Shown piece by piece: positions 2,638-23,630 of a DNA stretch of 64,000 bases; the first letter of the stretch is position 1; each line of letters starts with the position of its first letter. The translations under genes were made by a program, and so were the position numbers. The notes below the pieces were generated by a model. That model made no database searches. It was not told where the DNA came from and saw only the letters and a program-made list of their open reading frames with translations. The stretch is from the NCBI GenBank assembly GCA_963665095.1, contig OY762069.1, positions 4,768,001 through 4,832,000 of the forward strand, in the 5' to 3' direction. The stretch comes from an uncultured Desulfobacter sp. (GTDB lineage: Bacteria; Desulfobacterota; Desulfobacteria; Desulfobacterales; Desulfobacteraceae).

Positions 2638-2648
2638 GCTTCTCCTCT

Positions 2649-3029: not shown

Positions 3030-3043
3030 AATCAGTTACCGGC

Positions 3044-3598: not shown

Positions 3599-3664
3599 AA
3601 AATCACCTCTTGCAGTTTGAAGCGTTATTTCCATAATGATCTTAAAGTCAGTTAATCACATTCA

Positions 3665-4579
3665 TCAGGCCGCATCCCCGTCACCACCGCCCTTGGCCGT
3701 ACGTTCCAGGATAAAAGCGTCCAGCTTGTCCTGGTTCACCTTGACCTTATATTCTTCTTTCAGGCGGTCATAGGTGTTCTGCCACGCTTCCCGGTATCTG
3801 GCATAAAGCAGATCATTGCGGATATAGGCCGCTTTTTCTTCATAGGAATGCACCACAGGGTCTGTTTTTGATACCAGTTCAAACAGATACCATGCCGCAT
3901 CTATATTATGGGGGCCGGATAAGCTGCCCGGTTCAAGTGTTGCAATGACCTGTCGCCAGGCCGGCTTAAATTTTTTCAGGGACCTGGTTCCGATGTCACC
4001 GCCCCTGTTCGCCGTCTGTTTGTCCACGGAATAACGGGCCGCCGCCTCAATAAAATCCATCTGTGCCCCCTCAATGATCTGGCGCGCCTCAAGAGCTGTC
4101 TGTTCATCACTGGCTTTAATCATTCGTACACTGAGCAGGGACGGGCTGGTATAGCTCTCCTGGTTGGTTTCATAAAACTCTTTGAGCTGGTCCTCAGTGA
4201 ATTGGTCTTTATCGATTTGGGGCACCAGATGTTCCTGCATCACTTTTAAGAACAAGTCCGACATATACGCATGGATCTGCGCCCGGATCCGGGGATCCTG
4301 GTGCAAGTTCTCTTTCAGGCCTTTGGCAATGATCATTTCCATATTCACGGCATGATCAAAAACAAACTCAGGGGTTAGCTGTTCTGGCCGGCCTCTGAAC
4401 TGTGACGAGTTTTTTAATTTTTCATAATGGGCGTCCAGATCCTGGGCCGTGAGACACCCGCCGTCAAACTCCACCAACGCATCATCCCTGGAATTGCATC
4501 CCCAAAGGCAGACACACAAACAACTGATAAGTAGAACCGCTGGAAAAAGAAACCGAGCTTTCTTCATGTTTTTCTCCAT
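3665..4579 (-). CDS. PpiC/parvulin-type peptidyl-prolyl isomerase lipoprotein
   Basis: Lipobox LWGC; rotamase motif FIEAAARYSVDKQTANRGGDIG; SurA/PrsA-like helical domain. Confidence 0.85.
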   Translation of the reverse strand: MEKNMKKARFLFPAVLLISCLCVCLWGCNSRDDALVEFDGGCLTAQDLDAHYEKLKNSSQFRGRPEQLTPEFVFDHAVNMEMIIAKGLKENLHQDPRIRAQIHAYMSDLFLKVMQEHLVPQIDKDQFTEDQLKEFYETNQESYTSPSLLSVRMIKASDEQTALEARQIIEGAQMDFIEAAARYSVDKQTANRGGDIGTRSLKKFKPAWRQVIATLEPGSLSGPHNIDAAWYLFELVSKTDPVVHSYEEKAAYIRNDLLYARYREAWQNTYDRLKEEYKVKVNQDKLDAFILERTAKGGGDGDAA

Positions 4580-4620
4580 TTAAATATTATATGCCTCGCT
4601 ATTTAGTTAAACGTGACCCG

Positions 4621-5820: not shown

Positions 5821-5832
5821 GATGGTAACTCC

Positions 5833-7482: not shown

Positions 7483-7517
7483 GTGTCGGGTATTCCTATT
7501 TTAGGACAGTCACTATA

Positions 7518-8675
7518 TCAACGGAACCATCTGCGCTTGCCGGTTGTTTCATTCTCAGTCTCAGGTGCCTGGTCCACCATCAGCCGCTGTTTCATCAGGT
7601 TTTTGTTTTTGGCCGCTGCCACAGCCGTCTCCACAGAAATTTTGCCCTTTTTAACCAGCTTAATCAGGCATTGCTCCATGGTCATCATGCCGTCGTTGAA
7701 CCCGGTTTCAATATTGGAATAGATCATGTCATCCTTGGCCTGGCGGATGAGATTGGCAATGCCTGGCGTTGCAAACATCACCTCAACCCCGGGAATCCGG
7801 CCGGTATTCCCGGCATTGGGCAGAAGCCGCTGGGACACCACTGCTTTGAGAGTCGATGCCAGCTGCTGCCGGATCTGGGGCTGTTCACCGGCTGGAAACG
7901 CCCCCACCAGTCGGTTAATGGTGGAGACACAGTCCCGGGAGTGAAGGGTGGAAAAGACCAGGTGGCCTGTTTCTGCGGCCATGATGGCCGTGCGCATGGT
8001 TTCAAGATCCCGCATCTCGCCAACCAGAATTACGTCCGGGTCCGCACGAAGGGCATCTCGCAGGGCGGAAGAAAAAGAGGATACATCAGAATAAAGCTCA
8101 CGCTGGTTGATTATGCTCATTCGGTTTTCATGCACGTATTCAATGGGGTCCTCAATGGTGATGATGTGGTGGTTCTGGGTGTCGTTGATCTGGTGGATCA
8201 CCGTGGCCAGGGTGGTGGACTTACCGGAGCCTGTCACCCCTGTTACCAGGACCAGACCATCCCGGATGGTGGGCAGCCGGGACAAACAGTCAGGCAGTCC
8301 TAAACTTTCAAATGTGGGAATCCCGGAAGCCAGGAGCCGGAACGCCGCTGAAATGGCACCTCGCTGGTAATACGCTGCCACACGAAACCGGCCCACGTCG
8401 TTGATGCTCACGGCAAAATCCACGGACTTCTTTTCCTCAAGCACTTCCCGGTAACGGTCCGTGAGCACCTGGTCCATGAGCCGCCGGATATCCTTGGAAG
8501 AATAGGGCGCATGCCCGGGATGAGGCGTAATTTTTCCCTTGATCCTGTACATGGGCGGCATGTCTGCGGCCAGGTGAAGGTCAGATGCCCCCATCTCAAG
8601 CGTCCGGGCAAACAGTTCCCTGATATCTTTTTCTCTGACCCCTTCGGTGAAGGGAATGTCCACACAAACTCTCAT
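7518..8675 (-). CDS. pilT: Type IV pilus retraction ATPase, PilT/PilU family
   Basis: GASDLHL, TGVTGSGKSTT, TIEDPIE, LRADPDVILVGEMRD, AAETGHLVFSTLH, GIANLIRQ (AIRNLIRE-like), GMMTMEQ. Confidence 0.93.
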   Translation of the reverse strand: MRVCVDIPFTEGVREKDIRELFARTLEMGASDLHLAADMPPMYRIKGKITPHPGHAPYSSKDIRRLMDQVLTDRYREVLEEKKSVDFAVSINDVGRFRVAAYYQRGAISAAFRLLASGIPTFESLGLPDCLSRLPTIRDGLVLVTGVTGSGKSTTLATVIHQINDTQNHHIITIEDPIEYVHENRMSIINQRELYSDVSSFSSALRDALRADPDVILVGEMRDLETMRTAIMAAETGHLVFSTLHSRDCVSTINRLVGAFPAGEQPQIRQQLASTLKAVVSQRLLPNAGNTGRIPGVEVMFATPGIANLIRQAKDDMIYSNIETGFNDGMMTMEQCLIKLVKKGKISVETAVAAAKNKNLMKQRLMVDQAPETENETTGKRRWFR

Positions 8676-8690
8676 AACAGCTCCCTGTCT

Positions 8691-10748
8691 CTAATAAATC
8701 ACATCTTTTTCCTGTTGATCGTTCAGGCTTGCCCGGCCTTTATCTGTTTTGCCCGGATTCTGGGTTTCGGCCTTTTGCCCCGCATCCACAGACTCAGCTG
8801 TCCTTTTCTCATCGGTCAGCAGATTCTCCCGGCCATCAAGTATGGTGGTGTGCGAGCTTCTGCGCTGCAAAAATAGATCGGTCTCCTCACCAGCCAGCCC
8901 GGGATGGTTGATAATATGCGGGGTGATAATGATCACAGTCTCGGTTTTCTGGGTGGAGTCGTTCTCCTGGCGGAACAGGTACTTGAGAAGAGGCACATCC
9001 CCTAAAAACGGGGTCTTTTTCACCGAGTTGTCCACGGTTTCCCGGATGATGCCACCCAACGCAATGGTCTGTCCGGACTTGGCCGTGACAATGGACTCAA
9101 TCTCGCTTTTGGTCTGGCCGTCCAGGGGGAACTCAATGAGATTGCCGTTGTCATCGGACAGGGTCACCGCGGTCATGTTGTACTGGGCCGAAGAGATTTC
9201 GGCATCAATCTCCATGGTCACGGTATTGTCTTCATTGATAAAGGTGGAGATCTCTAAGTCAGTGCCAAGCTCTTCCCTGAGGATATCAACAATAAAGGTG
9301 TTGATGGTGTCCCCGGAATCGCCGATGGGAATGGTCTCCTTGGACACATCATCCCGCAGGGGCACCTCTTCGCCTACAAAGAAATTCACCGTGGCGTTGT
9401 TGGCGCACATCAGAAAGGGCGATGATATGGTGTTGGCCCGTCCCTCGGACTCATACAGCGAGATCTGGGCCTGGATATTGCTGAAGGAGAGAATCCCGCC
9501 CAAAGTGGAGCCGGAGGCCGCGCTGCTGGCCAGGGTGCTCAGACCGCCCCCTTCATTTACTGTTCCGCCCGGTGTTATACGGCTGTCCGTAGTGCTGCCG
9601 GAATAATCTCCGAAATCAAACTGGAAAAAGCTTTCAAACTCGTCCCCCAGGGTAATCTGCAGAATTTTTACCTCCAGCAATACCTGACTTGTGGGGGTGT
9701 CCAGGGTTTCAATGATCTTTGCCATCTCGTTGATCAGGCTTTGGTCCAGAGAACGGGCAATGATGGTGTTGTTCCTCTTGAACACCGTGAGAATGGCCAA
9801 AAGCGGCTTTTTACTTTTAGTGCTGCTCTTTTTAGCTGTGGCATTATTGGCAGCGGAGACGGCAGCCGCAGCCGCAGCCAGGGTCTCCTGAAGGACCTGC
9901 TGCTGTTTCGCCTGGTCTGCCTGGGCACTGCTGCGGCTCTCCTGTCCGTAGCTACTCTGTTTTGTCAGTTGATTCATGAACACAATGCGCTGGGACGCAG
10001 AATTATCCAGGTCCGGGCCGTCATATTCCCCGCCCAGATCCACCTCCTCCTCCGGATCCACATGTCCGTATATCTTTTCATCCTCAATGGCGGCCAGGTA
10101 AACTTCCGAGCCCATGAGTGCCTGGATGATTTTGGCCATGTCCGCGGCATTGGTGTATTTAATGGAAAACGCCCGGGTATGTTCGGTCTGGCGGATCTCA
10201 ATGTCATTGACATACTCCTCCCGGGTCATCAGGGTCACAATATTATGCCCCTCCCGGAACCACAGGTTGTTGAGACGGCAGATGGTTTCAAGGGCGGACC
10301 TGAGACTGATATCCTGCATGTAAATACTGATATTGGTGTTTTCAACGGTTTTGGTGGGCACCACATTGGTGCCGCACAACCGGGTGAGCAGTTCTGTAAG
10401 CTGTCTTACCGGCACATCGCGAAGAATCAAAGAGCGGATGATTTCAGACATGCCCTTGAGCGCGTCCGCTTCCTGTGCGCCCGCGCTCATAAGTTTTTCA
10501 GCCTGTCCCGGTTCAACTTGCGTCCCCTTGATAACCTTGACAATGGGCTTCTCCCCGTCCGGATAGAGGTCCTTGATAGTGGGGTGTTTTTTCTCCACCC
10601 CGTCAATGACCATGCGGGTATTGTATGGATTGGGTGCGGCCAGGGAGTCCGGGCTTTCAGGTTTGGAATCATTGCACCCTGCCATCAGGGTGCAGGCTGC
10701 TGTGAGAACTGCCGGGAACATGAATTTTGTCAGGAATTTCTGGATCAT
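8691..10748 (-). CDS. Outer-membrane secretin (GspD/PilQ-like) with lipoprotein signal
   Basis: LMAGC lipobox; LDTPTSQVLLEVKI, GQTIALGGII, KTPFLGDVPLLKYLF, ETVIIITPHII secretin motifs. Confidence 0.9.
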   Translation of the reverse strand: MIQKFLTKFMFPAVLTAACTLMAGCNDSKPESPDSLAAPNPYNTRMVIDGVEKKHPTIKDLYPDGEKPIVKVIKGTQVEPGQAEKLMSAGAQEADALKGMSEIIRSLILRDVPVRQLTELLTRLCGTNVVPTKTVENTNISIYMQDISLRSALETICRLNNLWFREGHNIVTLMTREEYVNDIEIRQTEHTRAFSIKYTNAADMAKIIQALMGSEVYLAAIEDEKIYGHVDPEEEVDLGGEYDGPDLDNSASQRIVFMNQLTKQSSYGQESRSSAQADQAKQQQVLQETLAAAAAAVSAANNATAKKSSTKSKKPLLAILTVFKRNNTIIARSLDQSLINEMAKIIETLDTPTSQVLLEVKILQITLGDEFESFFQFDFGDYSGSTTDSRITPGGTVNEGGGLSTLASSAASGSTLGGILSFSNIQAQISLYESEGRANTISSPFLMCANNATVNFFVGEEVPLRDDVSKETIPIGDSGDTINTFIVDILREELGTDLEISTFINEDNTVTMEIDAEISSAQYNMTAVTLSDDNGNLIEFPLDGQTKSEIESIVTAKSGQTIALGGIIRETVDNSVKKTPFLGDVPLLKYLFRQENDSTQKTETVIIITPHIINHPGLAGEETDLFLQRRSSHTTILDGRENLLTDEKRTAESVDAGQKAETQNPGKTDKGRASLNDQQEKDVIY

Positions 10749-10758
10749 GGTTTGTCCT

Positions 10759-11112
10759 TTAATCTACCTCCACCTCACAGGTCTCTCCGTTGCCGGCCTT
10801 TAACAAAATGCTCCTGTTTTTGATCTTTACAATCCGGTATGTATGGTCTACCCCGTTGTGGGTCACAATGATTCTGGAATCCTTTGAATAAACCGCGGGC
10901 GGCCGTTCCGGATTTGTCCGGACAATGACCTTGGCATTGGTGTCCGTGGTGATCAGGCCGATGATTTCGATCTGCTTTTTGGCGGCCTTATAGTTGAAAA
11001 GCGCCTGGGGAGGGGCTGCCGGCTCTTCAAACGGACTTCGTTCGGCAGCAGCTGAAGGCAGTGCCGCAAAGAGGTAAAGCAGGGTCAGGCAGACAAGCGC
11101 GTGGGGTTTCAT
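10759..11112 (-). CDS. Exported protein at PilP position (PilP/GspC-like)
   Basis: Signal peptide; ERSPFE motif followed by a beta-rich domain (IEIIGLI...YRIVKI); located between pilO-like and secretin genes. Confidence 0.6.
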   Translation of the reverse strand: MKPHALVCLTLLYLFAALPSAAAERSPFEEPAAPPQALFNYKAAKKQIEIIGLITTDTNAKVIVRTNPERPPAVYSKDSRIIVTHNGVDHTYRIVKIKNRSILLKAGNGETCEVEVD

Positions 11113-11135
11113 ATCAGTCCTTTAAAACATACAGG

Positions 11136-11678
11136 TTAAATTTTCAGGGTAAAGGCAATGGATAACGGGGATGATTTCACCCCCGAACTGGCCATCTGGA
11201 TGCCGGAAACCTCCACGGCATCCCCAAGCTGCTCAAGTTCCATCAAAAAGTTGACAAACCCTGTAAAATCGCCTTTCAGGTTCATGGTAAAAGGGGACCA
11301 GTCAATGTATTTTCCCGGTTCCCGCTCTTTGGGGGCAATGGTGATCACCTTCAGGTCGTTCATCACCATGATGGTGGAGATTTTGCTTAACAGCCGGGAG
11401 ATATCATCCGGGTTGCCCGCGTTCAGGGCCAGGTTGCCGTTCTCCTCTTTAAGTTCGGCCAGGCGCTTTTTATTCTGCTCAATGGTTTTTTCCAGTTGGA
11501 ACAGCGGAGGAATATCCTTTAGTTTGTTCAGTTCCGCCACCACTTTGTTCCGTTTTTTCAACGTGGTTTGAAGCACCTTGGTCTGGGGATCATACATATA
11601 TTTCATGTAGAAAAAGGTGCAGGCGATGATCAGTGCCGCCGCCAGCCCGAACTTTTCAAGATTGGTCATGGATTTCAT
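11136..11678 (-). CDS. pilO: PilO-like alignment protein
   Basis: N-terminal TM, coiled coil, PFTMNLKGDFTGFVNFLMELE. Start MKSMTN overlaps the upstream stop (ATGA). Confidence 0.8.
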   Translation of the reverse strand: MKSMTNLEKFGLAAALIIACTFFYMKYMYDPQTKVLQTTLKKRNKVVAELNKLKDIPPLFQLEKTIEQNKKRLAELKEENGNLALNAGNPDDISRLLSKISTIMVMNDLKVITIAPKEREPGKYIDWSPFTMNLKGDFTGFVNFLMELEQLGDAVEVSGIQMASSGVKSSPLSIAFTLKI

Positions 11679-12076
11679 TGAACTGCCTCGCTTTCCGGAT
11701 TGACATCCACCTGAACCACAAAGCTCAGCTGACTGCCGGTTTTGGCGTCCAGGGATTTGAGAACCGCTGAGGTGCACCACGCATTGTCCTGCATGGCAAC
11801 GGAAAAAAGCCCCACCCGGGTCAGATCCCAGCTCCGGCCGGTAATGGTGAAGGTGTTGGGTGTATCGGGATTCTGGGCCACGGTATCCAGCACCAGCCCG
11901 TCAGGCACGGCCCTGGCGACACCTTTAAAGCAGGTCACCAGGATGGCAAGCTTCTGGTCTGCAATCCTGTTGACAAAGTTGATGCGGTCCTGGACCGTTC
12001 GGATATCTTTTTCCAGCTGGGTGGCTTTTTTCAGCAGATCCTCATATTTCTGGATGGTACTTTTGTTTTTTTCCAC
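11675..12076 (-). CDS. pilN: PilN-like periplasmic domain (3' part of a frameshifted pilMN fusion)
   Basis: Coiled coil, then VARAVPDGLVLDTV...FTITGRS PilN pattern; has no TM of its own, the TM lies in the upstream frame. Confidence 0.7.
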   Translation of the reverse strand: MEKNKSTIQKYEDLLKKATQLEKDIRTVQDRINFVNRIADQKLAILVTCFKGVARAVPDGLVLDTVAQNPDTPNTFTITGRSWDLTRVGLFSVAMQDNAWCTSAVLKSLDAKTGSQLSFVVQVDVNPESEAVQ

Positions 12077-13185
12077 CTCTGCGAGTATTGTTTGATGTCG
12101 GACTTAAACCGCCGCTCCTGGTATTTCATGAACTGATTGTGGCCCAGAAGCCCTAGGGCCAGGACAGAGGTGGCCACCAGGGGCATCACATAGACATTGC
12201 GCTTGAGCCGGACCCGTAAAGGTTCGGAGTCATCAATCCCCACCTTGTGCATGGTCTTGCCGCCAAGCTCCCTGCAGCCTGCGCCCACGGCCGTGCCGAA
12301 TATTGCATCTGCAGGGTCTGTCTCCTTGTGGGTGATCTGGGCGGTTTTGGACAGCATCAGGGGCCGGGCTCCGGATGGAGAGAGTCGGTTTACATAGTCG
12401 GCAATTTCCGGTATGGCCGCCCCAGGACCTGTCAGCACCACCGGCTCATGGTCTGGGGCCTGGGACAGGGTGAACTTGAGGCTGCTTTCCAGATCCCGAG
12501 ATCCAACGGCCGAGGTGAGGTGGGACCGAATGGCGTCTGATGAGAAGTTCAGGGTGGAGATCTGGTCCGGGTGCCGCCCCTGGAATATGGCAAAGTTGGA
12601 ATAGTCCGTGCCGATTTCCAGAATGGCCCGGGGGATGTCCGGACTTTCCAGGAACAGGGGCATGTAAAAACTGACCTCGGGCGGATAGACCCGGATCAGC
12701 TTCAGACCGGCCGCCTTAAACCGTTCCCGCACCGCCACATAAACATTTTTTTCAATGGCCGAGATATTGACCATGATCTCGTCGGTCTCATTCTCGTATA
12801 CAATCTCGCCGGGTGCGGCCTTGGGTTGGGGCTCTTTTTCCACGCCCACCAGGGCATTGCCACCGGTGATTCCTGTATAGGATTCAATCTCCCATTTGGC
12901 AGCCTCTGACAGCTGGTAGTCCGACATGTTCGACACTTTTTTGCGGTCCATGAACAGCTCTGTGGACCGGGCCAGGGCCGTGACATACACGGCATTTCTG
13001 CCCGTATACTTAAGCGTCTCCTTCAGCTCTTTGAGGCTGTCAATGGCCGGCAGGTCTTCATCGGGCTTGGAGCGCTTCATCCCAGCATAGTCCAGGATGG
13101 CAATTTTGTTGCCCCTTCCCTTGAGCAGCACGCCTCTGATGATATCTTCACTGACTTCCACGGCCAGTATGGTCTGTTGCAGCAT
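12031..13185 (-). CDS. pilM: PilM-like actin-fold domain plus PilN TM helix (5' part of a frameshifted fusion)
   Basis: ILAVEVSEDIIR, AILEIGTDYSNFAIF, VVLTGPGA, FGTAVGA PilM patterns; ends in a TM and coiled coil that continue in the -1 frame. Confidence 0.75.
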   Translation of the reverse strand: MLQQTILAVEVSEDIIRGVLLKGRGNKIAILDYAGMKRSKPDEDLPAIDSLKELKETLKYTGRNAVYVTALARSTELFMDRKKVSNMSDYQLSEAAKWEIESYTGITGGNALVGVEKEPQPKAAPGEIVYENETDEIMVNISAIEKNVYVAVRERFKAAGLKLIRVYPPEVSFYMPLFLESPDIPRAILEIGTDYSNFAIFQGRHPDQISTLNFSSDAIRSHLTSAVGSRDLESSLKFTLSQAPDHEPVVLTGPGAAIPEIADYVNRLSPSGARPLMLSKTAQITHKETDPADAIFGTAVGAGCRELGGKTMHKVGIDDSEPLRVRLKRNVYVMPLVATSVLALGLLGHNQFMKYQERRFKSDIKQYSQRWKKTKVPSRNMRIC

Positions 13186-13218: not shown

Positions 13219-15363
13219 TTAAAATACTTGGAAAGCCGCTGTGTCCATCTCGATTGATTCCACCTGGCCGGTGCCGGCCATGGGCAGAACATTGAAGATC
13301 ACCTGTTTGAAGGACTCCCCCTCGTCCAGCACATCATCGTTATCGTCATCATTCCACACCACAAGGAACCTTGCTCCGGTGCCAAGAACAGTGCCTGAAC
13401 CGGAGAACTCAAGACAGGGACTGCCGGGCCAGGTGCCGGTACTCCAGTCATCGGAGGTCCCGTCGCTGTCCTCATCGGTCAACGCAGCACAGGTTAACAC
13501 CGTGTCATCTTCCAGGGTGCCGTCCTCATTGGTTATACCGTCCACAAAGAGCCGGGCCTTGGTGGTGGATGCCGTGGCATTGAGTACGGTGAGACTGCCT
13601 AAGGTCAGATACCCCGGCGTGAACTGATATGCCCGGATCTCCAGCACCTGGTTGTCCTGGTTTTCCGTCTGGGTCGGATCATAGTCATCAATGTCCAGGA
13701 CCTCATCAAAATCATCGGGCTCGGCCTTGGCACCATCCACAGTGGTGCCGAAATCAAACAAACCGTCCGTCCCCCGGCTCAGTATCAGCAGGGCATTGTT
13801 GCTGGTATCTTTGAAAAACAGGATCTCATTGCCCCAGGCATCCCGGATTACCTGATTCTTATCCAGGCCTTCGGGCACCGAATGATAGGCTCGGGCCCAG
13901 CCGATGCCCCAGGCTTTTTCATCCAGGTCATCCGTAACGCCGTCCTCACCCTCATCATTGTCCGCTGTGTCAGACAGATTGGGGGTCCGGGTCCAAAGTC
14001 CCCTTGGCTGACCTTTGGTATAGTCGGTGTCGGTACTGCTGACCACCATCTGATTATCCCACTGGCCTGTTTCACTTTCGCTTTCAGCCGCCTCCCAAAG
14101 AAACAGGTCCGGCAGTTCAAGCAGATCTCCTGTGTACCCGGTGTTCAGCCCCTCCGGACTTCTGCCGATGAGCGCCCGTTTAATTGAGGACAAAATTGCC
14201 GCTGTGGCTGCCCGGTTATCCGCTTCTTCCTGTTCAAACACGGTTTCATACTCATGGGAGTAAATCTTCATCACAATATTGTCCTGGTTTTCATCCAGGG
14301 TGTCGTCATAGGCTTTGCCCATGGTGTCATCGGCGTCCACACTCCAGCTGTGGCCGGTGCAGGTCCCCTTGGTGGGATATCTGGCGTCAAAGTCCGGCCC
14401 TTCGGACACTATCCAGAAGATGGTGGCATCCTCCCGGTCCGGGTCCGCTGTGATAAAAAAGCGCAATGCCCTTCCCCAGCCGTCCATGAACCGGCCGTCG
14501 GTATTCAGCAGCCGATATTTTTCCTTGTCATCAAACAGCTCGCCCATGGCAGCGTCATAATCCCCGTCTTCCCAGGTCTCCCAGCCCGAGGCGTCAATCC
14601 AGGCAGGAGGGAGCTTTTCATAGTCTGCCATACTTTTGGCATAGTGGCTGCCCGCCTCATCACTGCGGGCACTGGGCGGCAGGAGATAGGGGCCTTTCCA
14701 CTCCTCCCCCGCTTCATCTCCCAAAATTTTGCCCGGGGCTTTATGGTCTTCGGAGAGATCAAAAGGCAGATCTTCCACATAACAGGTCCACAAGCCCCTT
14801 GGCTGGCCCTCGTTTTCCGTTTCAAGGCCGCCGATGTGGTCCGCATTGTCAGTGGTGTCGTCGGTTAGCTTCCGGTAGGGGGCCAGCCATTTCCACCTTT
14901 TTTGTACAAACTCACCCGCCGGCCGGAAAAAGACGTAATCCGAGTCCATGGTGTAATCAGGCCCCTGGCCAAGGCCGGCTGTCAGGTTTTCAGGATCATC
15001 CCAGCCTGTGCCCTCAAAGCTGGGCTTGATCTCGGCCCGGGCCTCCCACAGATCCGGGAATGCCTTCATATCCCCCACATATCCGCCAATGACCCGCTGC
15101 CCGTTCTTGTCATATACCCCGGCAGGCCCCATGACGGCCTTTCTGATCCTTTCCATGGTCTCCCGGGTGATCTGCGCTTTACGGTCATTATCCATGGTGC
15201 CCAGGGCGGACCAGGCCATGGCGCTCATCATCCCTAAAATAAAGATCACGATCATGACCTCCAGCAGGGTAAAGCCGCTTTGGCAGGCAATATCTTTCCC
15301 AATGCCAATCAATGGGCTTTCCAGGGTTGTCTTGTTCTTTTTGGGGGGTGGCGTCTTTTTCAT
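13219..15363 (-). CDS. 714-aa acidic prepilin with two tandem GspG-like domains
   Basis: SG|FTLLEVMIVIFILG class III signal; GQPRGLWT, G/TGYxGD..xPDL, DxWG, SxGxD and ENQDN each occur twice. Confidence 0.85.
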   Translation of the reverse strand: MKKTPPPKKNKTTLESPLIGIGKDIACQSGFTLLEVMIVIFILGMMSAMAWSALGTMDNDRKAQITRETMERIRKAVMGPAGVYDKNGQRVIGGYVGDMKAFPDLWEARAEIKPSFEGTGWDDPENLTAGLGQGPDYTMDSDYVFFRPAGEFVQKRWKWLAPYRKLTDDTTDNADHIGGLETENEGQPRGLWTCYVEDLPFDLSEDHKAPGKILGDEAGEEWKGPYLLPPSARSDEAGSHYAKSMADYEKLPPAWIDASGWETWEDGDYDAAMGELFDDKEKYRLLNTDGRFMDGWGRALRFFITADPDREDATIFWIVSEGPDFDARYPTKGTCTGHSWSVDADDTMGKAYDDTLDENQDNIVMKIYSHEYETVFEQEEADNRAATAAILSSIKRALIGRSPEGLNTGYTGDLLELPDLFLWEAAESESETGQWDNQMVVSSTDTDYTKGQPRGLWTRTPNLSDTADNDEGEDGVTDDLDEKAWGIGWARAYHSVPEGLDKNQVIRDAWGNEILFFKDTSNNALLILSRGTDGLFDFGTTVDGAKAEPDDFDEVLDIDDYDPTQTENQDNQVLEIRAYQFTPGYLTLGSLTVLNATASTTKARLFVDGITNEDGTLEDDTVLTCAALTDEDSDGTSDDWSTGTWPGSPCLEFSGSGTVLGTGARFLVVWNDDDNDDVLDEGESFKQVIFNVLPMAGTGQVESIEMDTAAFQVF

Positions 15364-15472: not shown

Positions 15473-16063
15473 TTATTCTCTTCCCCAGGTTTTTACTTGA
15501 ATTTTGCTGCCATACCCGAAGAAGCGGTACACACCGTCACACAATGCTTTGATATTATTAGCTGAAAGATTGGTTTCAACAAAAATGCCGGAGTCTTTGA
15601 TCGGACGACCGTCTCTGAGCCAATTGCGTTTTAAGGCAAAATAAGCCCTCTTCCCTTGGACGCCCTCAATTGCCCGGGCAAACGTCTCCCTGTTTTCGGC
15701 GTAGATTCTTGCGCATAAATCAGTGAGCAAGTGCTTCCATGAAGTAACATCATGCCTTTCCCCGCCGAGTACATACCATAGCGGTTTTGTCCCCTTATAA
15801 ACTTCTTCGTGGGAAACAGTGATATATTCAAACCCGCCGACAAAACGGTTTGAGGGTGCATCATCTGTCATGTCAGAATCCGTGACGGACAGGAACCGTT
15901 TCTGGAAATAGGCCGCCACCGCCTGTTTTTCCGGCTTGAGTCCGGTTTGGTTACCGGCTTCTCGAATAATATGTTCCATTAAAATATCCGGCATATTTCG
16001 ACCCAGCGATGCCATGGTCCGGTCAAGGGCCGCTTCCATTTTTTTGTCAAGTATGGCTGTCAT
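15473..16063 (-). CDS. Hypothetical cytoplasmic protein with a C-terminal SeqA-like/'ETNLSAN' domain
   Basis: ATG 1 nt after the upstream pilin stop, RBS ggag; KPLWYVLGGE..VTSWKHLL...IFVETNLSANNIKALC. Confidence 0.6.
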   Translation of the reverse strand: MTAILDKKMEAALDRTMASLGRNMPDILMEHIIREAGNQTGLKPEKQAVAAYFQKRFLSVTDSDMTDDAPSNRFVGGFEYITVSHEEVYKGTKPLWYVLGGERHDVTSWKHLLTDLCARIYAENRETFARAIEGVQGKRAYFALKRNWLRDGRPIKDSGIFVETNLSANNIKALCDGVYRFFGYGSKIQVKTWGRE

Positions 16064-16064
16064 C

Positions 16065-17090
16065 TCAGTCTCCAATATCCCCGTTATCATTAAAATCAAT
16101 GCCCCAGAAGCTGGCCCCGGAAGAGGGATGAAACTTCTCCCCGATGGCGTTGATCACTGTGAAAAAAGCCGGGTCCTGGGCTTCGTACAAATTAATTTCA
16201 CGCACCTTTGCAATGGACAGGTCAGACGCTTCTGCGCTGGATGACGTGTCCATTGCAAAACTGGTGAACGTATCTGCGCCCAATGGATTATCTTGTTCCA
16301 GTCGCATGGAAGTGGCGCTGAGCCGGGGAATCACAAGGGAGTACCAGGCATAGTCAAAGTTGTGTGGTTCGGTGATGCCGTGGGGACAGACCGATGCATT
16401 GAACATATAGCCCTGCTTTATCAGTTCACTCTCCGGGCCCAGGCCAAAGAGAATGCAGAAATTAAGATCATTTTCCCCCCAGCCGGGTTCATCCGTATCC
16501 ACTTCAGTGGCCTCAATGACGCCGTCGTCATCACTGTCCCCGCCACCGATCATCAGGACTGCCGTGCCTGCGGCCACCTTTTCCATGACAGGGGAGGGGT
16601 TGGACACGGCATCGTCATAGGCGGAGTTCAGGTTGTACACATGGACAATGCCCATGTCCCGGAGTTCCTGTGCCTCATCCTCATCCAGATAATGCACAGC
16701 CGGCCGGCACCGCTGTTCAAAGGCATAGGCCAGCACCTCCCTGCCGTTGTCCGGGTCCTGGTCCGACACTTCCGGTTTCTGATAGTCACCGGAACTCTCG
16801 TCTGTGGAGACAATGTTAATAAGCCCGCCCGGATATTTGCCATAATCCTGGATATAGGCCGTGATGAACTTGATCAGTCTGGCTTCGTTCATGCGTCCTC
16901 CCGTGTCCGTGGCCTGGGCTGTCATTCCGGCAAACTTAGGCGCGGACATGGCCAGGATAAACCCGAGGACAGTGAGAACTATCAGGACTTCCATAAGGGT
17001 GAAACCTGATGAATTAAAGGGGAATGAAGGATGCCTGATTTTGGTCACCGAACTTGGCATTTTTATACCTGCAGATGCAATATTTTTCAT
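16065..17090 (-). CDS. 341-aa acidic prepilin, paralog of the major pilin
   Basis: SG|FTLMEVLIVLTVLGFILAMSAP; shares many blocks with 17150..18292. Start could be the next Met (MPSS). Confidence 0.85.
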   Translation of the reverse strand: MKNIASAGIKMPSSVTKIRHPSFPFNSSGFTLMEVLIVLTVLGFILAMSAPKFAGMTAQATDTGGRMNEARLIKFITAYIQDYGKYPGGLINIVSTDESSGDYQKPEVSDQDPDNGREVLAYAFEQRCRPAVHYLDEDEAQELRDMGIVHVYNLNSAYDDAVSNPSPVMEKVAAGTAVLMIGGGDSDDDGVIEATEVDTDEPGWGENDLNFCILFGLGPESELIKQGYMFNASVCPHGITEPHNFDYAWYSLVIPRLSATSMRLEQDNPLGADTFTSFAMDTSSSAEASDLSIAKVREINLYEAQDPAFFTVINAIGEKFHPSSGASFWGIDFNDNGDIGD

Positions 17091-17149: not shown

Positions 17150-18292
17150 TTAATCTTCGGCAATGGCACCGGCAGTCGGTCCGCCGTCGGCAGCAGTCGG
17201 GTTAAGGTCAATGCCCCAGTAGTCGCCGTCATCAGCAGGATACATGTGGCCTTCAGGGCACATGGTGGCAAACTGCCAGGTTGACTGAGCTTCTGAGATG
17301 TTGAAGGTCCGAACTTTAAAGTTGTCAGCATTACCGACATAGTCATAATCTGGACTGGGTTCGTCATCGGTGTAACCCACGCAGTAAGCCTGGAGACCGT
17401 CTTCAGAAGAGTCTCCGTCAATGGCGTCAATTGCGGCACCTTCAGTGGTATCATCCATTCTTACCGTAGTTGCCGTGAGACGAGGAAGTACCAGGTTGTA
17501 ATCATTGTAAGTTACGTTGTCGGCATTCTGAATGCCACCAGGGCAATGGGCTGCGTTGGCGATAACACCGTCTTTGACCAGAGCGGATTCAGCGCCCATA
17601 CCCATAACAATACGGCCAAAAAATTCAGGCTCACCCCAGCCACGCTCATAACTCGGAAGGACAAAAGCGTTACCAGAAGCGCCTGTATTGATACCAGTGG
17701 CAACCATCATAACACCAAGCCCTTCTTCAACAGTCACTTTTTCCATTTCAGGAGCTTTGGTAACGCTTGTTGCCAAAGCGGTGTCATTGGGACCAGGGTC
17801 GGTGGTGTCTGTTGAAACAGTATTATTGTAACCGGATTTAATTGCTGTGCCATCATCCAAATACGCATCATAAGCATTAAGGTTATATACAGACACAATG
17901 CCCATATTTTTGATCTCAGCGGCTTCGTTAGCATCCAGGTAATGAATCATGAAATGATTTCTTTCATTGAATTCAGCCGCCAGAGTTTCTGCACCATTGT
18001 CCGGGTCGCCGTCAGAAATAGCTGGAATCTGATAGGTATCAGCCGCTGTTTCTTCAACAATGTTGGTCAATAGGTTCGGAAAACGATTAGTTTTTTCAAA
18101 ATAAGAAGCCATATAAGTAACCATTCTGTTCTGGTTAGTGTCGCATACCGTATCAACGGCGTCGCCGGAGATGCCGGCAAGGCGGGGTGCGACCATGGCA
18201 ATGAGGAAGCCCATGATGGTCAGGACGACCAGGATTTCAAGCAGGGTAAAACCTTTTTGATTGTTAATGTTCTTGTGCTGTTTCTTTTCCAT
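17150..18292 (-). CDS. 380-aa acidic prepilin, probable major pilin
   Basis: MEKKQHKNINNQKG|FTLLEILVVLTIMG; strong RBS aaggag at 18303-18308; more A/T-ending codons than neighbouring genes; followed by a hairpin. Confidence 0.9.
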   Translation of the reverse strand: MEKKQHKNINNQKGFTLLEILVVLTIMGFLIAMVAPRLAGISGDAVDTVCDTNQNRMVTYMASYFEKTNRFPNLLTNIVEETAADTYQIPAISDGDPDNGAETLAAEFNERNHFMIHYLDANEAAEIKNMGIVSVYNLNAYDAYLDDGTAIKSGYNNTVSTDTTDPGPNDTALATSVTKAPEMEKVTVEEGLGVMMVATGINTGASGNAFVLPSYERGWGEPEFFGRIVMGMGAESALVKDGVIANAAHCPGGIQNADNVTYNDYNLVLPRLTATTVRMDDTTEGAAIDAIDGDSSEDGLQAYCVGYTDDEPSPDYDYVGNADNFKVRTFNISEAQSTWQFATMCPEGHMYPADDGDYWGIDLNPTAADGGPTAGAIAED

Positions 18293-18522
18293 TTTGTACT
18301 TCTCCTTTAAAATAAAGTTTAAGGCTAAGTACAAACAACCCACCCTCAGAGTCTGCTGCACTATGTGGCGCCGTGGGTTTCCACGGCAATTAAAAAATTA
18401 AGTGTTTTTCCCGGTATGTTCCGGGCCTTGCGGTATACCTTGTTCCGGCGCCCTGCCGCGACACAAGAAGTATTGCCTTAAATAACGGTGGTTCAAATCC
18501 TCCTTTCGGTTAAATTTGCGGG

Positions 18523-18762
18523 TTAGGGGTTTGCTGTGGGAGACACCGCCCGGGCATGCGGCCCAGCGGGCTTGAGCTGTCCTGCGTCGTAATCCACCAC
18601 ATATCGAAAGTCCTTGCCGCAATGGATAATGACCTCTTTCTGGCCTTTTTTAAGAAACCGCATTTCTACTTTCAGCTCTCCAAATCCGTCGTGCATAAAT
18701 ATATCCGTGTACAATTCCTGGATTTTGTCCAGTATGTCGCTGTGTTCCCGGGCAAGATTCAT
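18523..18762 (-). CDS. 79-aa conserved-looking small protein of unknown function
   Basis: RBS aggag; protein-like sequence (ELYTDIFMHDGFGELKVEMRFLKKGQKEVIIHCGKDFRYVVD). Confidence 0.75.
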   Translation of the reverse strand: MNLAREHSDILDKIQELYTDIFMHDGFGELKVEMRFLKKGQKEVIIHCGKDFRYVVDYDAGQLKPAGPHARAVSPTANP

Positions 18763-18862
18763 GAATCTCCTGTTCTTTTCCTTACGGCTTTGCCGGCTTT
18801 ATTGGGTGTTTTTGTCCGGGCCTGTCGGGCCCGAAGATTTGACTCATTGCTAATTCGGGGGA

Positions 18863-19270
18863 TTAACAGGCTGGAGGACCCCGGTACACCAGCCAGGCAT
18901 GAAAATCAGCCGGCACCGGAACGGGGGACCCGGGGCAGGAGAGGTCAGGACCGGGTGGGGCCGGCCTAACCTCCTGGTGACGAACGACCTGCTGCTCAGG
19001 TGCTTTGACGCATGAGTCGAAAATAGAACAGTGATGGAGGTGATACCCGTCTGTATTTCGCTTTTCAATACAGGCCACAAGACGAGGCGCACCGTTATCT
19101 GCATTCCGGTGTCCATGGGTATGAAACTGTTTCAGGTCAGACATGCCATGCCAGGACGTATGACATATTCCTGATGCGAAAAGATTGAAGGTAAACAATG
19201 CCAGCACCACAAGCACCACCATGGGCACTTCCGGTACAGTTGAATTTTCTTTTTCAAAAAGGTCAGGCAT
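18863..19270 (-). CDS. His/Cys-rich leader ORF ending in RGPP (DUF2946/CruR/CutF-like arrest peptide candidate)
   Basis: Hydrophobic N-terminal helix, HTHGH and HLHHC..C clusters, Pro-rich linker, C-terminal WLVYRGPPAC*. Confidence 0.7.
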   Translation of the reverse strand: MPDLFEKENSTVPEVPMVVLVVLALFTFNLFASGICHTSWHGMSDLKQFHTHGHRNADNGAPRLVACIEKRNTDGYHLHHCSIFDSCVKAPEQQVVRHQEVRPAPPGPDLSCPGSPVPVPADFHAWLVYRGPPAC

Positions 19271-19357
19271 TTATTCACCATATCAAACAAATCTATGTAT
19301 AAAGATTTGCCTTGTCTGTATCGACTAACTTGTATTGCTTAGACTTAAAAACAAGAT

Positions 19358-19388
19358 GCGTTATAACGCCTGATAAGATAGGTGTCAA
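19358..19388 (-). promoter_or_regulatory. sigma70 promoter of the pilus operon with a palindrome over the -10
   Basis: TTGACA (19388-19383), 17 bp, TATAAC (19365-19360); perfect 12-bp palindrome gcgttataacgc at 19358-19369. Confidence 0.7.
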
Positions 19389-19497: not shown

Positions 19498-19851
19498 TTA
19501 CGGTTTGACCACCAATGCAACCGCTGTGGGTATCAGGCCGTTGGGTGGGATCAGGCCGTCAAATTTTTTTTCATATCCATGCACTGATTTTAGCCCAGAA
19601 AAACAATCCAACACTGTAAAAATTCGTTCCGGGCTTACATTTTTCAGAATGGTTCCAAAAAGCTGCTGCGCTTCATCCGTTAAATCTGCCACGATTTCCC
19701 GGGTCATTTTAATGGGGCGGGAATGTCCGATGATTTCAATGGTGTGGGCCTGGGCCGTGGTGAAGCCGGTGTCTCGGACAACCGCTTCTTCCCTGGAAGA
19801 TAGCTTTTCAAAAAATTCCACAATGCTTTTTGACAGATGGGTTAAATCCAT
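19498..19851 (-). pseudogene. MarR-family regulator with internal deletion of the HTH/wing
   Basis: MDLTHLSKSIVEFFEKLSSREEAVVRDTGFTTAQAHTIEIIGHSRPIKM joins directly to the C-terminal helix TREIVADLTDEAQQLFGTILK; recognition helix and DRR wing are absent. Confidence 0.65.
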
Positions 19852-19917: not shown

Positions 19918-20991
19918 ATGGATCCAACCCGTCTGATTCCAACACCGGATACAATCCCTGTGGCCTGGGGATGGTTTGATCTGCTGTTGATCGCCACTTT
20001 TATTCTGCATCTTCTGGTCATGAATTTCATGCTTGGCGGAGGGCTTATCTCTGTGCTCAACATGTTTCGCCCACAAAGTCAAAACCAGCTTTTAAACAAA
20101 GAGATAAGCGTTAAATGGCCCTTTACCATCGCCTTTGCCGTGAACTTGGGTGTGGCACCACTGCTGTTTATTCAGGTGATATACGGTCATTTCATTTATA
20201 CCAGCTCCATTCTGATGGCGGTGTGGTGGCTGTCTGTCATTATATTACTGATTCTGGCGTATTACGGGGCGTATATTTATGATTTTAAATTTGATCGGCT
20301 TAAAACCCTGAAAGCACCGCTTCTGTTAGTGGTGGTGGTTTTGATGCTGTATATCGCCTTTTTCTTTACCAATAATATGACGCTTATGCTTCAACCGGAG
20401 CGCTGGCAGGCCTATTTTCAAAATACCGGGGGGACGTTTCTCAACCTTGGGGACCCTGTCCTGGTCCCGCGTTATCTGCATATGGTTACAGGCTCTGTGG
20501 CGGTTGCAGGGCTGGGTGTGGCCGCGCTTGGCCATTTTAATCTGATTCGGACGGGCCTTGATCGTGAATGGATGATCCGCCGGGGTTTAGGGTATTTCCG
20601 GGCTGCAACCATGGTTCAGGTGCTGATCGGTATCTGGTTTCTCATCTCTTTACCAACCCATATTATGACCCTTTTTCTGGGAAAAAGTGTTGTGGGAACC
20701 CTTCTTTTAGTCATGGGCGTGGTTCTGGCGGTTGCCGGCCTTTTTCTGGCCAAAAGGGGCAAACCCATGGCTGTGATCGGGACAGGTTCGATACTGCTGG
20801 TGGTGATGGTACTTATAAGAGATCTGGTCAGGCAGGCCTATCTGCAGCCCTATTTTCAGTTATCAGACCTCACCCTGCAAAAGGAGAGCAGCTCGTTTAT
20901 CTTTTTTCTGGTGGTGCTTGTCATCGGGATTACCCTTATCGGGTATATGCTCAAACTGCTTGCAGGGTGTGAAAGGCAGGTGTCCAGATGA
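19918..20991 (+). CDS. Multi-TM partner subunit of a cytochrome bd-like complex (CydA'-like)
   Basis: About 9 TMs with His residues (FILHLL, RYLHMV); overlaps the CydA-like gene (ATGA); RBS aggag. Confidence 0.7.
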   Translation: MDPTRLIPTPDTIPVAWGWFDLLLIATFILHLLVMNFMLGGGLISVLNMFRPQSQNQLLNKEISVKWPFTIAFAVNLGVAPLLFIQVIYGHFIYTSSILMAVWWLSVIILLILAYYGAYIYDFKFDRLKTLKAPLLLVVVVLMLYIAFFFTNNMTLMLQPERWQAYFQNTGGTFLNLGDPVLVPRYLHMVTGSVAVAGLGVAALGHFNLIRTGLDREWMIRRGLGYFRAATMVQVLIGIWFLISLPTHIMTLFLGKSVVGTLLLVMGVVLAVAGLFLAKRGKPMAVIGTGSILLVVMVLIRDLVRQAYLQPYFQLSDLTLQKESSSFIFFLVVLVIGITLIGYMLKLLAGCERQVSR

Positions 20992-23630
20992 ATTATCCCC
21001 TATGGCATCTGACCACCTTTGGCGGTGGTTTTTTTATTGCACTGATTGCAGTGGTTCATGTGCTGGTTTCCCACTTTGCCGTTGGCGGCGGGGCATTTCT
21101 GGTGCTTCTGGAGAGAAAGGCGCGTAACACTGACGATGCCGACCTTTTAGCCTATGTAAAAAAACACAGCCGTTTTTTCATGCTGCTGACCATGGTGTTC
21201 GGCAGCATCACAGGCGTGGGGATCTGGTGGACCATTGCCCTGCTCAACCCCGGCGGGACATCTGTCTTGATTCACACCTTTGTTTTCGGGTGGGCTGCGG
21301 AATGGGTCTTTTTCCTGTGCGAAATTGTGGCGTTGTTTGTCTATTATTACACCTTTGATCGCATGGACCCTAAGGCCCACACGACCGTGGGGTGGATCTA
21401 TTTTATCAGTGCCTGGATGTCGCTGTTCCTGATCAACGGCATTATTGATTTTATGCTTACACCCGGGGCCTGGCTTGATACAAAGGCGTTCTGGGACGGG
21501 TTTTTTAATCCCACCTTCTGGCCCGCCCTGGTGTTCCGCACAGGCATGGCATTGACCCTTTGCGGTGTGTTTGGGTTTGTCACGGCGGCCTTTACTCAAA
21601 AAGCGGGGCTGCGGACCCGGCTGATGCGGATCTGTTCTGTCTGGACCCTTCTGCCCTTTGTTTTGATGATGATTGGCCTTTTCTGGTATGCCAAGGTGTT
21701 GCCTGAAACGGTCCATACGATGATATTCAGCCACTCTCCTGAGATGGCGCCCTATTTTACCGCCTTTATGTGGGGGCTGCCGGTACTCTTTGCCGCTGCT
21801 TTGGTGATGGCCCTGAAATTGCCGCAGGGGGTCCAAAAGGCCCTTTGCGTGGTGGTGGTCCTCGTCTCCCTGGTCTATCTCGGTGCCTTTGAATTTATTC
21901 GGGAGGGGGGACGCAGGCCCTTTATTATCCGGGATTACATGTATGCCAACCAGGTGCGCAAAACCGATGTAAAAACGATAAACGACAAGGGGTTCCTGTC
22001 CACGGCCAAATGGAGCCGACATAAACAGATCACAGACGAAAACCAGGTTGATGCCGGTGCCGAGCTGTTCCAGTTCCAGTGCGGCATCTGCCACGCAATT
22101 GACGGGCCCATGCACAATATCCGGCCCCTGATCAAAAAGTATGACAGTATGTTCGGCATGGATGCCAAGCTCAACGGTCTGGGTAAACTGAATACCTATA
22201 TGCCCGAATTCATGGGCACCTGCCGGGAACGTCTGGCCCTGGCCGCCTATCTGGTTCAGGAGATCAACGGCATTAATACTGCAATCCCGGATAATCCCGA
22301 AGTGGCAAATAAAGATCTGCCTGTATCGGTTCCTCCCTTTGATCATGACACGGACCAGTATGTGCTGCTGGCATGGAACGACCTGGGGATGCACTGCATT
22401 TCCGACAGCTCCCGGTACTGGGTGCTTTTGCCGCCGGCAAACAATATCTGGGCCCAGCTGATCCGGCGCGATGACGTGCCGGAACTTGTCACCGACGGGG
22501 TGGAACTGCGTTATGAGGTTGAAAAAGGGTTTGAGCATCCTGAAAATCACGTACCGTTCTGGGAGCACGCACAATCCATTCTCGGCAAAAAGCTTGACCC
22601 GGGTGCGGGTGTAACCGGCAACAAGGTCTCAGGCGTCATGGAAGCCAGGGAAGACCACCAGGCATTTGCAGCGGAGTTTATCCCGGTGGTGCCCTACCCG
22701 GATGACGGCAGCTTCAATCCCTATCCCATTTTCACGGTTACCGCCGTGGACAAAGCTTCCGGCAAGGTGCTGGCGGTCACGCGAACAGTGGCACCCACCT
22801 CAACGGAGATGGGGTGTAAAAACTGCCATGGCGGCGGCTGGCGGGTCAACGGCGTGGCCGGGTTCACAAAGGAGACCAGCCTGGATGTACTCAAGGCCCA
22901 TGACAAGAACAGCGGCACCCGTCTTGTGGAACGCGCCCTAAAGGGGGAACCCATGCTCTGCCAGTCCTGCCATGCGGATCCTGTGCTGGGCACCCAAGGA
23001 AAACCGGGGATTCTTAATTTTCCTGCGGCCATTCACGGGTGGCACGCCAATTTCCTCACAGACCGCGAAGGTCCTGCCGCATGCGTGGCCTGCCATCCGG
23101 CACGCGCCAACGGGCCCACCCAGTGCTTCCGAAGCCACCATGCCGATTTCCTTGACTGCACCAACTGCCACGGCACCCTTGAAGACCATGCCCTGGGCCT
23201 GCTGAAAAAGGAGAAGATGGACGGGAAGAAAGGTGCGGCCCGGCTGATGGAACGTCTGACGCCGAGGGTGGCGGATACGGTGGCGGAGATCAATCCCCGG
23301 ACCCCATGGCTGCAGGAGCCCGACTGCCTGAATTGTCATCAGGAGTATCAGCCCCCGGAAACCGACAACGGGTTCAATACCTGGACCTCAGGCGGAGAAA
23401 CACTTTTCCGTAACCGGACTGATGAGATGGGCGCGGTGATGTGTGAAGGGTGCCACAGCAGTACCCATGCCACATATCCGGCCGTAATGAACCGCCTGGG
23501 CGAGCAGCGGGATTCCATCCAGCCCCAGCAGTACCAGGACAGCGACAGGCCCATCGGCAATGACTGCACGGTCTGCCACAGGGTGCAGCCCGATTATGAA
23601 GGGCATCATCCCAACTCGCTTCGCCAATAA
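20988..23630 (+). CDS. CydA-like bd-oxidase subunit I fused to a multiheme cytochrome c (8 CxxCH)
   Basis: HVLVSHFAVG, GSITGVGIW, WAAEWVFF, EFIREGGRRPFII CydA-type motifs; CGICH, CKNCH, CQSCH, CVACH, CTNCH, CLNCH, CEGCH, CTVCH. Confidence 0.88.
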   Translation: MNYPLWHLTTFGGGFFIALIAVVHVLVSHFAVGGGAFLVLLERKARNTDDADLLAYVKKHSRFFMLLTMVFGSITGVGIWWTIALLNPGGTSVLIHTFVFGWAAEWVFFLCEIVALFVYYYTFDRMDPKAHTTVGWIYFISAWMSLFLINGIIDFMLTPGAWLDTKAFWDGFFNPTFWPALVFRTGMALTLCGVFGFVTAAFTQKAGLRTRLMRICSVWTLLPFVLMMIGLFWYAKVLPETVHTMIFSHSPEMAPYFTAFMWGLPVLFAAALVMALKLPQGVQKALCVVVVLVSLVYLGAFEFIREGGRRPFIIRDYMYANQVRKTDVKTINDKGFLSTAKWSRHKQITDENQVDAGAELFQFQCGICHAIDGPMHNIRPLIKKYDSMFGMDAKLNGLGKLNTYMPEFMGTCRERLALAAYLVQEINGINTAIPDNPEVANKDLPVSVPPFDHDTDQYVLLAWNDLGMHCISDSSRYWVLLPPANNIWAQLIRRDDVPELVTDGVELRYEVEKGFEHPENHVPFWEHAQSILGKKLDPGAGVTGNKVSGVMEAREDHQAFAAEFIPVVPYPDDGSFNPYPIFTVTAVDKASGKVLAVTRTVAPTSTEMGCKNCHGGGWRVNGVAGFTKETSLDVLKAHDKNSGTRLVERALKGEPMLCQSCHADPVLGTQGKPGILNFPAAIHGWHANFLTDREGPAACVACHPARANGPTQCFRSHHADFLDCTNCHGTLEDHALGLLKKEKMDGKKGAARLMERLTPRVADTVAEINPRTPWLQEPDCLNCHQEYQPPETDNGFNTWTSGGETLFRNRTDEMGAVMCEGCHSSTHATYPAVMNRLGEQRDSIQPQQYQDSDRPIGNDCTVCHRVQPDYEGHHPNSLRQ

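Follow-up and report, generated by a model that had tools for sequence, protein, structure and literature searches.

An RGPP-terminated leader ORF at the head of a Pih-type pilus operon in Desulfobacter: a candidate arrest-peptide metal sensor

Introduction

What would a short ORF, rich in histidine and cysteine and ending in a ribosome-arrest motif, be doing at the head of a pilus operon? The question is raised by a 64,000-nucleotide stretch of an uncultured Desulfobacter sp. (GenBank assembly GCA_963665095.1, contig OY762069.1, positions 4,768,001 to 4,832,000), referred to here as the window. A first-pass annotation made from the letters alone had singled out this ORF as a possible metal sensor that acts by arresting its own ribosome and thereby controls the genes that follow. 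In several contexts no arrest core under test outdid its terminal motif, RGPP (PMC12992588), but most RAPP-like proteins of Escherichia coli and Bacillus subtilis did not stall (PMC10987492), for which reason we can still only infer that the leader stalls. Here we describe the leader, the operon behind it, the distribution of both and the regulatory scheme that they suggest.

Results and discussion

Leader gene

Every feature ascribed to the leader by the first-pass annotation (a hydrophobic N-terminal segment, His/Cys clusters, a Pro-rich linker and a C-terminal YRGPPAC*) is present, on the minus strand; the plus-strand frame of the same interval is interrupted by stops. The 135-residue product terminates in WLVYRGPPAC* and carries the clusters CHTSWH (residues 36–41), HTHGH (50–54) and HLHHCSIFDSC (77–87). 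Residues 17–35 give the highest Kyte–Doolittle value over 19 residues (2.40) and form a confident helix in an AlphaFold model (block pLDDT 76–93) that is otherwise of low confidence (pLDDT 50.7); on the strength of hydropathy and this helix it is a putative export or anchor segment. The leader had also been described as the first ORF after a promoter, in agreement with the promoter-like TTGACA-17-TATAAC and the GGTGA that precede it; both have counterparts in a second genome of the genus, G012, where TTGACA-17-TATAAA stands at the aligned position. The site in the window was missed by our promoter scan, the rule of which demands a final T. Coordinates are collected in Table 1.

Taken by itself, a C-terminal R[AG]PP is within chance: it ends four of the 32,619 ORFs of 50–250 residues in the genome (RGPP one, the leader), and control tetrapeptides end 3–14 of them. 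It is the conservation of the motif that exceeds chance. RGPP is absent from the 1,567,017 residues of the 3,077 genome ORFs of at least 300 residues, in which four permutations of it occur 7–10 times, and this agrees with the strong avoidance of RGPP reported for Desulfobacterota proteomes (mean bias 0.041; PMC12992588). YRGPP is invariant in all seven close leader sequences, followed by a tail that varies from two to 37 residues, and RGPP is present in all eight other aligned leader sequences, two of them at 27–32% identity. These two distant homologs, P0131 and P0132 (32% and 27% identity), both end in HRGPP, yet the stretches matched by the profile (21–124 and 22–68) lie outside the motif; they share F-F-N, G-x-C-H, W-H and H-G-H with the leader. 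Among the window genome, G012 and a third genome of the genus, G013, the Gly and Pro codons of the motif differ only synonymously. Spacing is likewise constrained: in all seven full-length sequences CH lies 94–99 residues and HGH 77–80 residues from the RGPP arginine, and the last cysteine is 42 residues from it in the leader, 41 in P0131 and 44 in P0132.

The leader looks like a real gene under purifying selection, with dN/dS values of 0.28–0.35 against G012 and 0.37 against G013 and third codon positions changed most. Its family is small (eight other sequences were found) and hence of narrow reach. Four database proteins match it, all keeping YRGPP, and a profile search of 1.84 billion proteins returned five matches: the near-identical P0124, a short form of the G013 type, P0131, P0132 and P0129, which was dropped as an unrelated repeat protein. 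Profile searches of 161 genomes of the family, 401 of the order and 401 of the class gave no convincing match beyond the window genome, G012 and G013; weak matches were rejected for internal stops or other frames (G488), and further weak ones occurred in G024 and G035. No homologs were found in viral contigs.

The G013 leader has lost 55 codons in frame, a deletion in the central His/Cys region, and also C36; it thus lacks HGH and every cysteine, keeping RGPP and the hydrophobic segment. This would suit a leader that works as a secretion monitor of the SecM/ApdA kind, in which Sec/YidC pulling on the hydrophobic segment frees the RGPP stall, pilus synthesis is matched to export capacity and the His and Cys residues are incidental. 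It was indeed as Sec/YidC monitors that RAPP/RGPP leaders were discovered (PMC10987492); many of the proteins encoded by the operon are exported or lie in the membrane, and G013 has a predicted anti-SD helix at its stall site. However, the CH, WH, HGH and Cys motifs are held at near-fixed distances from RGPP down to about 30% identity, and the G013 copy of the operon looks to be decaying, with an in-frame stop in pilB, a shortened leader and an insertion sequence upstream; we consider a secretion monitor rather unlikely.

Table 1. Features of the leader region and pilus operon (window coordinates, except for the two G013 entries)
Feature	Position	Strand	Basis
Leader ORF, 135 aa, RGPP; candidate arrest-peptide metal sensor	18863–19270	minus	Sequence, alignment, selection
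Hydrophobic segment, aa 17–35; putative signal or signal anchor	19166–19222	minus	Hydropathy and predicted helix
CHxxWH and HGH motifs	19109–19165	minus	Invariant in five full-length aligned leaders
HLHHC-x5-C cluster	19010–19042	minus	CxxC at the same place in distant homologs
Pro-rich linker, aa 101–120; C-rich mRNA	18911–18970	minus	Sequence
RGPP codons, aa 130–133; predicted stall site	18872–18883	minus	Invariant in alignments
Promoter-like site TTGACA-17-TATAAC (candidate)	19360–19388	minus	Sequence; counterpart in G012
SD-like GGTGA of leader	19275–19279	minus	GGTG before the start codon at the aligned place in G012 and G013
Spacer, 100 nt, with GC hairpin (18817–18833) and SD of next gene (18767–18771)	18763–18862	minus	Sequence, alignment
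Scar of deleted c-di-GMP-I riboswitch	18402–18464	minus	Flanks kept, most of aptamer missing
79-aa hypothetical protein, head of operon; immediate candidate target	18523–18762	minus	Precedes orthologous pilins too
Large pilin, 380 aa, PihP ortholog	17150–18292	minus	PF07963; 69% to P0136 (named PihP)
Another large pilin, paralogous (34%) to the 380-aa one	16065–17090	minus	Pfam, sequence comparison
714-aa large pilin, PihQ position	13219–15363	minus	Pfam; name from gene order
PilM/PilN-like gene, PihI position, two frames	11675–13185	minus	PilN match; one 503-aa ORF in G013
Remainder of operon, continued in the next row: PilO, 117-aa ORF, secretin, PilT-like and PilB-like ATPases, PilC, PpiC	2116–11678	minus	Pfam
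Remainder of operon, continued: 196-aa ORF, 126-aa GspG-like protein without GFxxxE, 173-aa membrane protein	2116–11678	minus	Pfam
pilB of G013 with in-frame stop	L145 13380–15026		Sequence comparison
Shortened leader of G013	L130 7846–8088		Sequence comparison

Downstream operon

The gene after the leader lies 100 nt downstream and encodes a 79-residue hypothetical protein; the first pilin starts about 570 nt past the leader. The small protein gave no Pfam, NCBIfam or PDB match, and a possible resemblance to HemP/DUF2292 was not supported by comparisons. Members of its family (about 70 residues) share the pattern H-x-G-Y/F-G ... KE ... CGK-x-Y/F-R.

The pilus context proposed by the first-pass annotation stands: the leader heads a type IV pilus operon, the first pilin of which is 69% identical to PihP. 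By gene order and domain content, with PihP alone compared by sequence, the operon is assigned as the Pih type IV pilus, which is known in Pelobacter (Syntrophotalea) carbinolicus from annotation alone and belongs to type IVa (Pcar_0865–0877; PMC3543383, the one paper on this pilus among the search matches listed), the order pihJ, K, L, M, E, G, F, B, A, H being that of Pcar_0868–0877 (PMC3543383, supplement 5). The two systems share this gene order, a major pilin candidate without GFxxxE and large minor pilins with a PilD motif. They differ in what precedes them: in P. carbinolicus the genes follow an AraC gene and an iron island with cirA and flavodoxin, whereas in the window they follow the RGPP leader and lack pihO.

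Several details of the operon may be recorded here. A 208-residue gene between the pilins (15473–16099, minus strand) has a weak SeqA C-terminal match (E of 0.014) and is not there in G013. The PilM/PilN-like gene encodes 505 residues in G090 and is split in the window, with an A-run near 12060–12074; a sequencing error in the homopolymer, phase-variable slippage and decay are all candidate causes of the split. An EAL phosphodiesterase gene (50–2056, plus strand) converges on the end of the operon. Among sequence data sets, DNA contigs cover the stretch with hardly a change, though they may be the very source of it, and no RNA data set was listed as containing it.

The first large pilin has invariant HCPGG and CPEGH motifs and invariant Cys50, Cys250 and Cys345; a metal site is possible. 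Its model (pLDDT 80.4) had PulG as best structural match (Z of 3.3) and no Foldseek match at E ≤ 0.001; this comparison is evidence neither for a new fold nor for a metal site. With cysteines invariant in the pilins, the cysteines of the leader might sense periplasmic redox state or disulfide-forming capacity in place of a metal, a reading with which DsbD genes flanking some pih orthologs and the occurrence of RAPP/RGPP leaders before DsbA/thioredoxin genes (PMC12992588) would also fit. The invariant residues of the leaders are, however, mostly histidines (His37, His41, His52 and His54, among 10–14 in total), and redox sensing seems to us very improbable.

Distribution of the leader

Among 24 further genomes of the genus, only G012 and G013 have the first pilin, and both also have the leader. 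Outside this group the leader profile matched at none of 56 other pih loci (about 44 distinct) with at least 900 nt of upstream sequence. The expectation that an RGPP ORF would recur upstream of orthologous operons was thus borne out in the three genus genomes with this pilin and failed at the other 56 loci: the leader is a lineage-specific front end of the pih operon, confined to the genus of the window. In two further genomes of the genus, G011 and G022 (loci L159 and L158), the small gene stands without a leader before another large pilin family (323–342 residues). Other pih loci are headed by AraC, Crp/Fnr or DUF2325 genes. At L032, L033 and L052 the small gene is preceded by a perfect Crp-type box, TGTGA-N6-TCACA, which none of 400 background windows contained, and at L033 a Crp/Fnr gene is directly upstream.

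Such interchangeable regulators, some with perfect boxes of this kind, would be expected if the leader were a captured cassette, that is, a real arrest gene that arrived from elsewhere with its own promoter and controls the 79-residue protein alone or nothing, the pilus being governed by other elements. In a quick pilin tree the pilins of the leader-bearing genomes do not group together and fall in different clades, and a truncated fragment, presumably of MarR type, lies just upstream of the leader. Against capture, leader, small gene and pilin are found together in three genomes with pilins only 60–65% identical, the leader is under purifying selection and no intrinsic terminator was found between it and the downstream genes. 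A wider linkage is hinted at circumstantially by leaders P0126 and P0132, which are on contigs sized like those of pilins P0119 and P0086 (90,536 and 677,766 nt). We judge capture to be quite unlikely. No pilin orthologs were found in plasmids.

The fragment (19498–19851, minus strand) is a chimeric remnant, the first 49 residues of which match a gene elsewhere in the genome (G000:C1:4475652; 86%); it has no Pfam match at the gathering threshold, resembles the start of a MarR-type regulator and may mark an island junction. The divergent pair beyond it (19918–23630, plus strand) encodes a membrane protein and an 880-residue protein in which a cytochrome bd subunit I-like domain is fused to a multiheme cytochrome c. 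At the Syntrophobacteraceae locus L035, an ORF (7759–8091, plus strand) with a signal, CxxC, 46 residues and RAPP lies two genes before the small gene, between FeoA-like/P1B-ATPase genes and the Pih operon; it was rejected as a leader homolog (hhalign probability 0.3) and, because a TTGACA promoter-like site separates it from the small gene, does not count as support either. An RGPP at L031 was rejected as lying in another frame over the pilin gene.

Metal context of the operon

Orthologous pih operons are often found near genes of metal limitation. Eight of 26 orthologous loci have a FeoB or DtxR-family gene in the 8 kb before them, compared with about 0.6% of random 8-kb windows of the window genome, for a scan that covered 87 of 180 called ORFs plus an additional ORF set and loci that are phylogenetically non-independent. 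Other neighbours are TonB receptors, CobN, FeoA/B, flavodoxin, DUF2325 and DUF2023, and what lies ahead of the pih genes of P. carbinolicus is a run of cirA, an ABC transporter, flavodoxin and AraC (PMC3543383). The family of the 79-residue protein itself heads feoAB in G160, and in G022 an imelysin gene has a paralog in front of it; the family is a candidate iron-regulon factor. No iron gene adjoins the three leader-bearing loci, and Fur-like boxes were not above background before the leader.

The first-pass annotation had read the His-rich ligand set as a hint of Zn, Ni or Co. That hint is weakened, the neighbourhoods of the operon pointing more to iron limitation: because orthologous operons sit in iron-uptake islands, they favour control of the starvation type with iron ahead of Zn, Ni and Co, and they suggest a role for the Pih pilus in metal acquisition. 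The opposite sign, as in CutF, would have periplasmic metal prolong the stall and turn the next gene on, or the metal sensed might be Zn, Ni, Co or Cu and not iron. Genes of Ni/Co/Zn type (NicO, DUF4198, ZnuA) and P1B ATPases do flank some pih orthologs, the distant leader homologs carry CxxC, and CutF-like clusters of the His-only type stand before Ni/Co HupE/UreJ genes (PMC9973294). Uptake and starvation functions (Feo, TonB receptors, flavodoxin, imelysin) nevertheless make up most of the neighbours, as would fit a system switched off by metal, and the distance from stall site to start codon, given below, is nearer the 162-nt spacer described for cruR than a short SD hairpin. We regard this alternative as unlikely.

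Spacer RNA and riboswitch

The stall site is 121–161 nt from the next start codon in the three leader-bearing genomes, and we found no RNA switch consistent across them. The predicted gain in SD unmasking on stalling is 8.95 kcal/mol in G013, a value that none of 60 synonymous controls reached; in the window genome it is 1.19 kcal/mol (reached by 16 of 60) and in G012 −0.16 kcal/mol (23 of 60), such that an anti-SD effect above controls is predicted in G013 alone. A long-range pairing of the Cys81–Phe84 codons with a purine tract before the small gene, found at the same position in the window and in G012 with two double changes, was noticed post hoc in these two sequences and is a lead only. 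Rho is encoded in the window genome, and a stretch of mRNA with C in excess of G over the linker and stall site is clear there; in G012 it is weak, and most of it is deleted in G013. The Pro codons alone could account for this stretch, for which structure is predicted.

Between the small gene and the pilin, G012 and G013 have matches to c-di-GMP-I-GGC (E values of 2e-11 and 4e-11; 56.5 and 55.6 bits, under the 59-bit gathering score), and the G013 site passes the gathering threshold for c-di-GMP-I. A c-di-GMP-I riboswitch also occurs in five of 18 other pih loci scanned. Rfam at the gathering threshold gave no match in the whole window.

Proposed mechanism

Putting these observations together, we propose that the leader stalls its own ribosome in the manner of CruR and so keeps the Pih operon on when a metal, most likely iron, is scarce, a proposal that we regard as evenly balanced. 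Against it weigh the confinement of the leader to one genus, the inconsistent RNA predictions, the lack of iron genes beside the leader-bearing loci, the Ni/Co/Zn genes near some orthologs, the retention of RGPP in G013 after the loss of HGH and all cysteines, and the split PilM/PilN-like gene. The hydrophobic segment would target the nascent chain to the membrane. When metal is scarce, the ribosome would stall at RGPP with its P site on the first Pro codon, as for the class (PMC10987492), and, by analogy with CruR, would shield the transcript or free the next start, turning the pilus operon on; metal bound at the CHxxWH, HGH and Cys motifs would promote folding or export, release the stall and turn expression off. 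Rho-dependent termination is our first guess for the coupling step, given the distance of the stall site from the next start codon, with SD masking as the alternative. In G012 and G013 the riboswitch after the next gene would place two inputs in series; the window genome no longer has this riboswitch. The fuller form of the proposal, an iron-sensing arrest leader that, in series with a c-di-GMP riboswitch in the sister genomes, gates an iron-scavenging pilus of sulfate-reducing bacteria, is tentative and on balance doubtful.

If correct, the fuller form would mean a nascent-chain sensor for iron and not copper, and an arrest peptide that controls a pilus, neither of which was found in the literature searched. 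Whatever its ligand, the leader offers a handle on the uncharacterized Pih pilus, an operon headed in one genome or another by AraC, Crp/Fnr, DUF2325, a c-di-GMP riboswitch or the leader, and often placed in iron-uptake islands.

Comparison with known arrest leaders

The first-pass annotation had suggested a search against DUF2946. PF11162 matched neither the leader (E ≤ 0.1) nor four homologs (E ≤ 10) and, genome-wide at E ≤ 1, gave nothing at the leader locus; Pfam and NCBIfam assigned the leader to no family. Its ESM Atlas features place it close (score 0.96) to a cluster in which DUF2946 accounts for 15% of the members, which is a lead only. The leader thus looks CruR/CutF-like in build and not a member of Pfam DUF2946.

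With CruR of Bordetella pertussis (Bp2923, DUF2946/PF11162), as described in PMC9426467, it shares a length of about 140 residues, a putative N-terminal export segment, a Cys motif 41–45 residues before a C-terminal R[AG]PP (42 in the leader, against 45 ± 2 in DUF2946 proteins), the first position in the operon, a long spacer and a mostly unstructured model. The CruR family has CxxC, whereas the leader and its close homologs have Cys81-x5-Cys87 together with CHxxWH and HGH, CxxC being limited to P0131 and P0132. The operon of CruR encodes a copper TonB transporter; that of the leader, which is its first gene as judged from the promoter-like site, encodes a type IV pilus and not copper homeostasis, and its arrest core is RGPP.

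The leader also fits the rule given for CutF-like proteins (fewer than 150 residues with PP in the last 15; PMC9973294), having 135 residues and PP at 132–133. It shares a hydrophobic N-terminus with CutF of Rhodobacter capsulatus and its relatives, among which His-rich subgroups exist (PMC9973294; bioRxiv 10.1101/2025.02.05.636593). Because His-rich CutF-like leaders have already been reported upstream of Ni/Co HupE/UreJ genes (PMC9973294), the His ligand set of the leader is not new. CutF has an SD-shielding stem-loop; no conserved one was found in the leader region (it is predicted in one of the three genomes, G013, and does not exceed controls in the other two), and the genes downstream of CutF-like proteins serve copper detoxification or are HupE/UreJ, neither of which applies here.

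ApdA, ApdP, RQH and the Streptomyces uORFs (PMC12992588, PMC10987492) resemble the leader in being small exported or membrane proteins with an RGPP core towards the C-terminus, and the narrow, patchy distribution of RAPP/RGPP arrest peptides is also that of the leader family. Unlike the Sec/YidC monitors ApdA, ApdP and RQH, the leader is not upstream of secA, secDF or yidC. The classes described downstream of RAPP/RGPP are sec/yidC, TonB, YcnI, PCuAC, PepSY and Dsb/thioredoxin; downstream of the leader are a hypothetical gene and pilins. The string 'pil' is absent from the main texts of PMC12992588 and PMC10987492, and a literature search, which did not extend to the RGPP uORF list of PMC12992588, found no pilus operon preceded by an arrest leader, nor any such leader that senses iron, in keeping with the statement of the first-pass annotation that it knew of no such pilus context. 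In the literature examined, copper is the one metal for which sensing by an arrest leader is proven (CruR and CutF); the ligand set of the leader differs from theirs, and a pilus is a target class unreported there.
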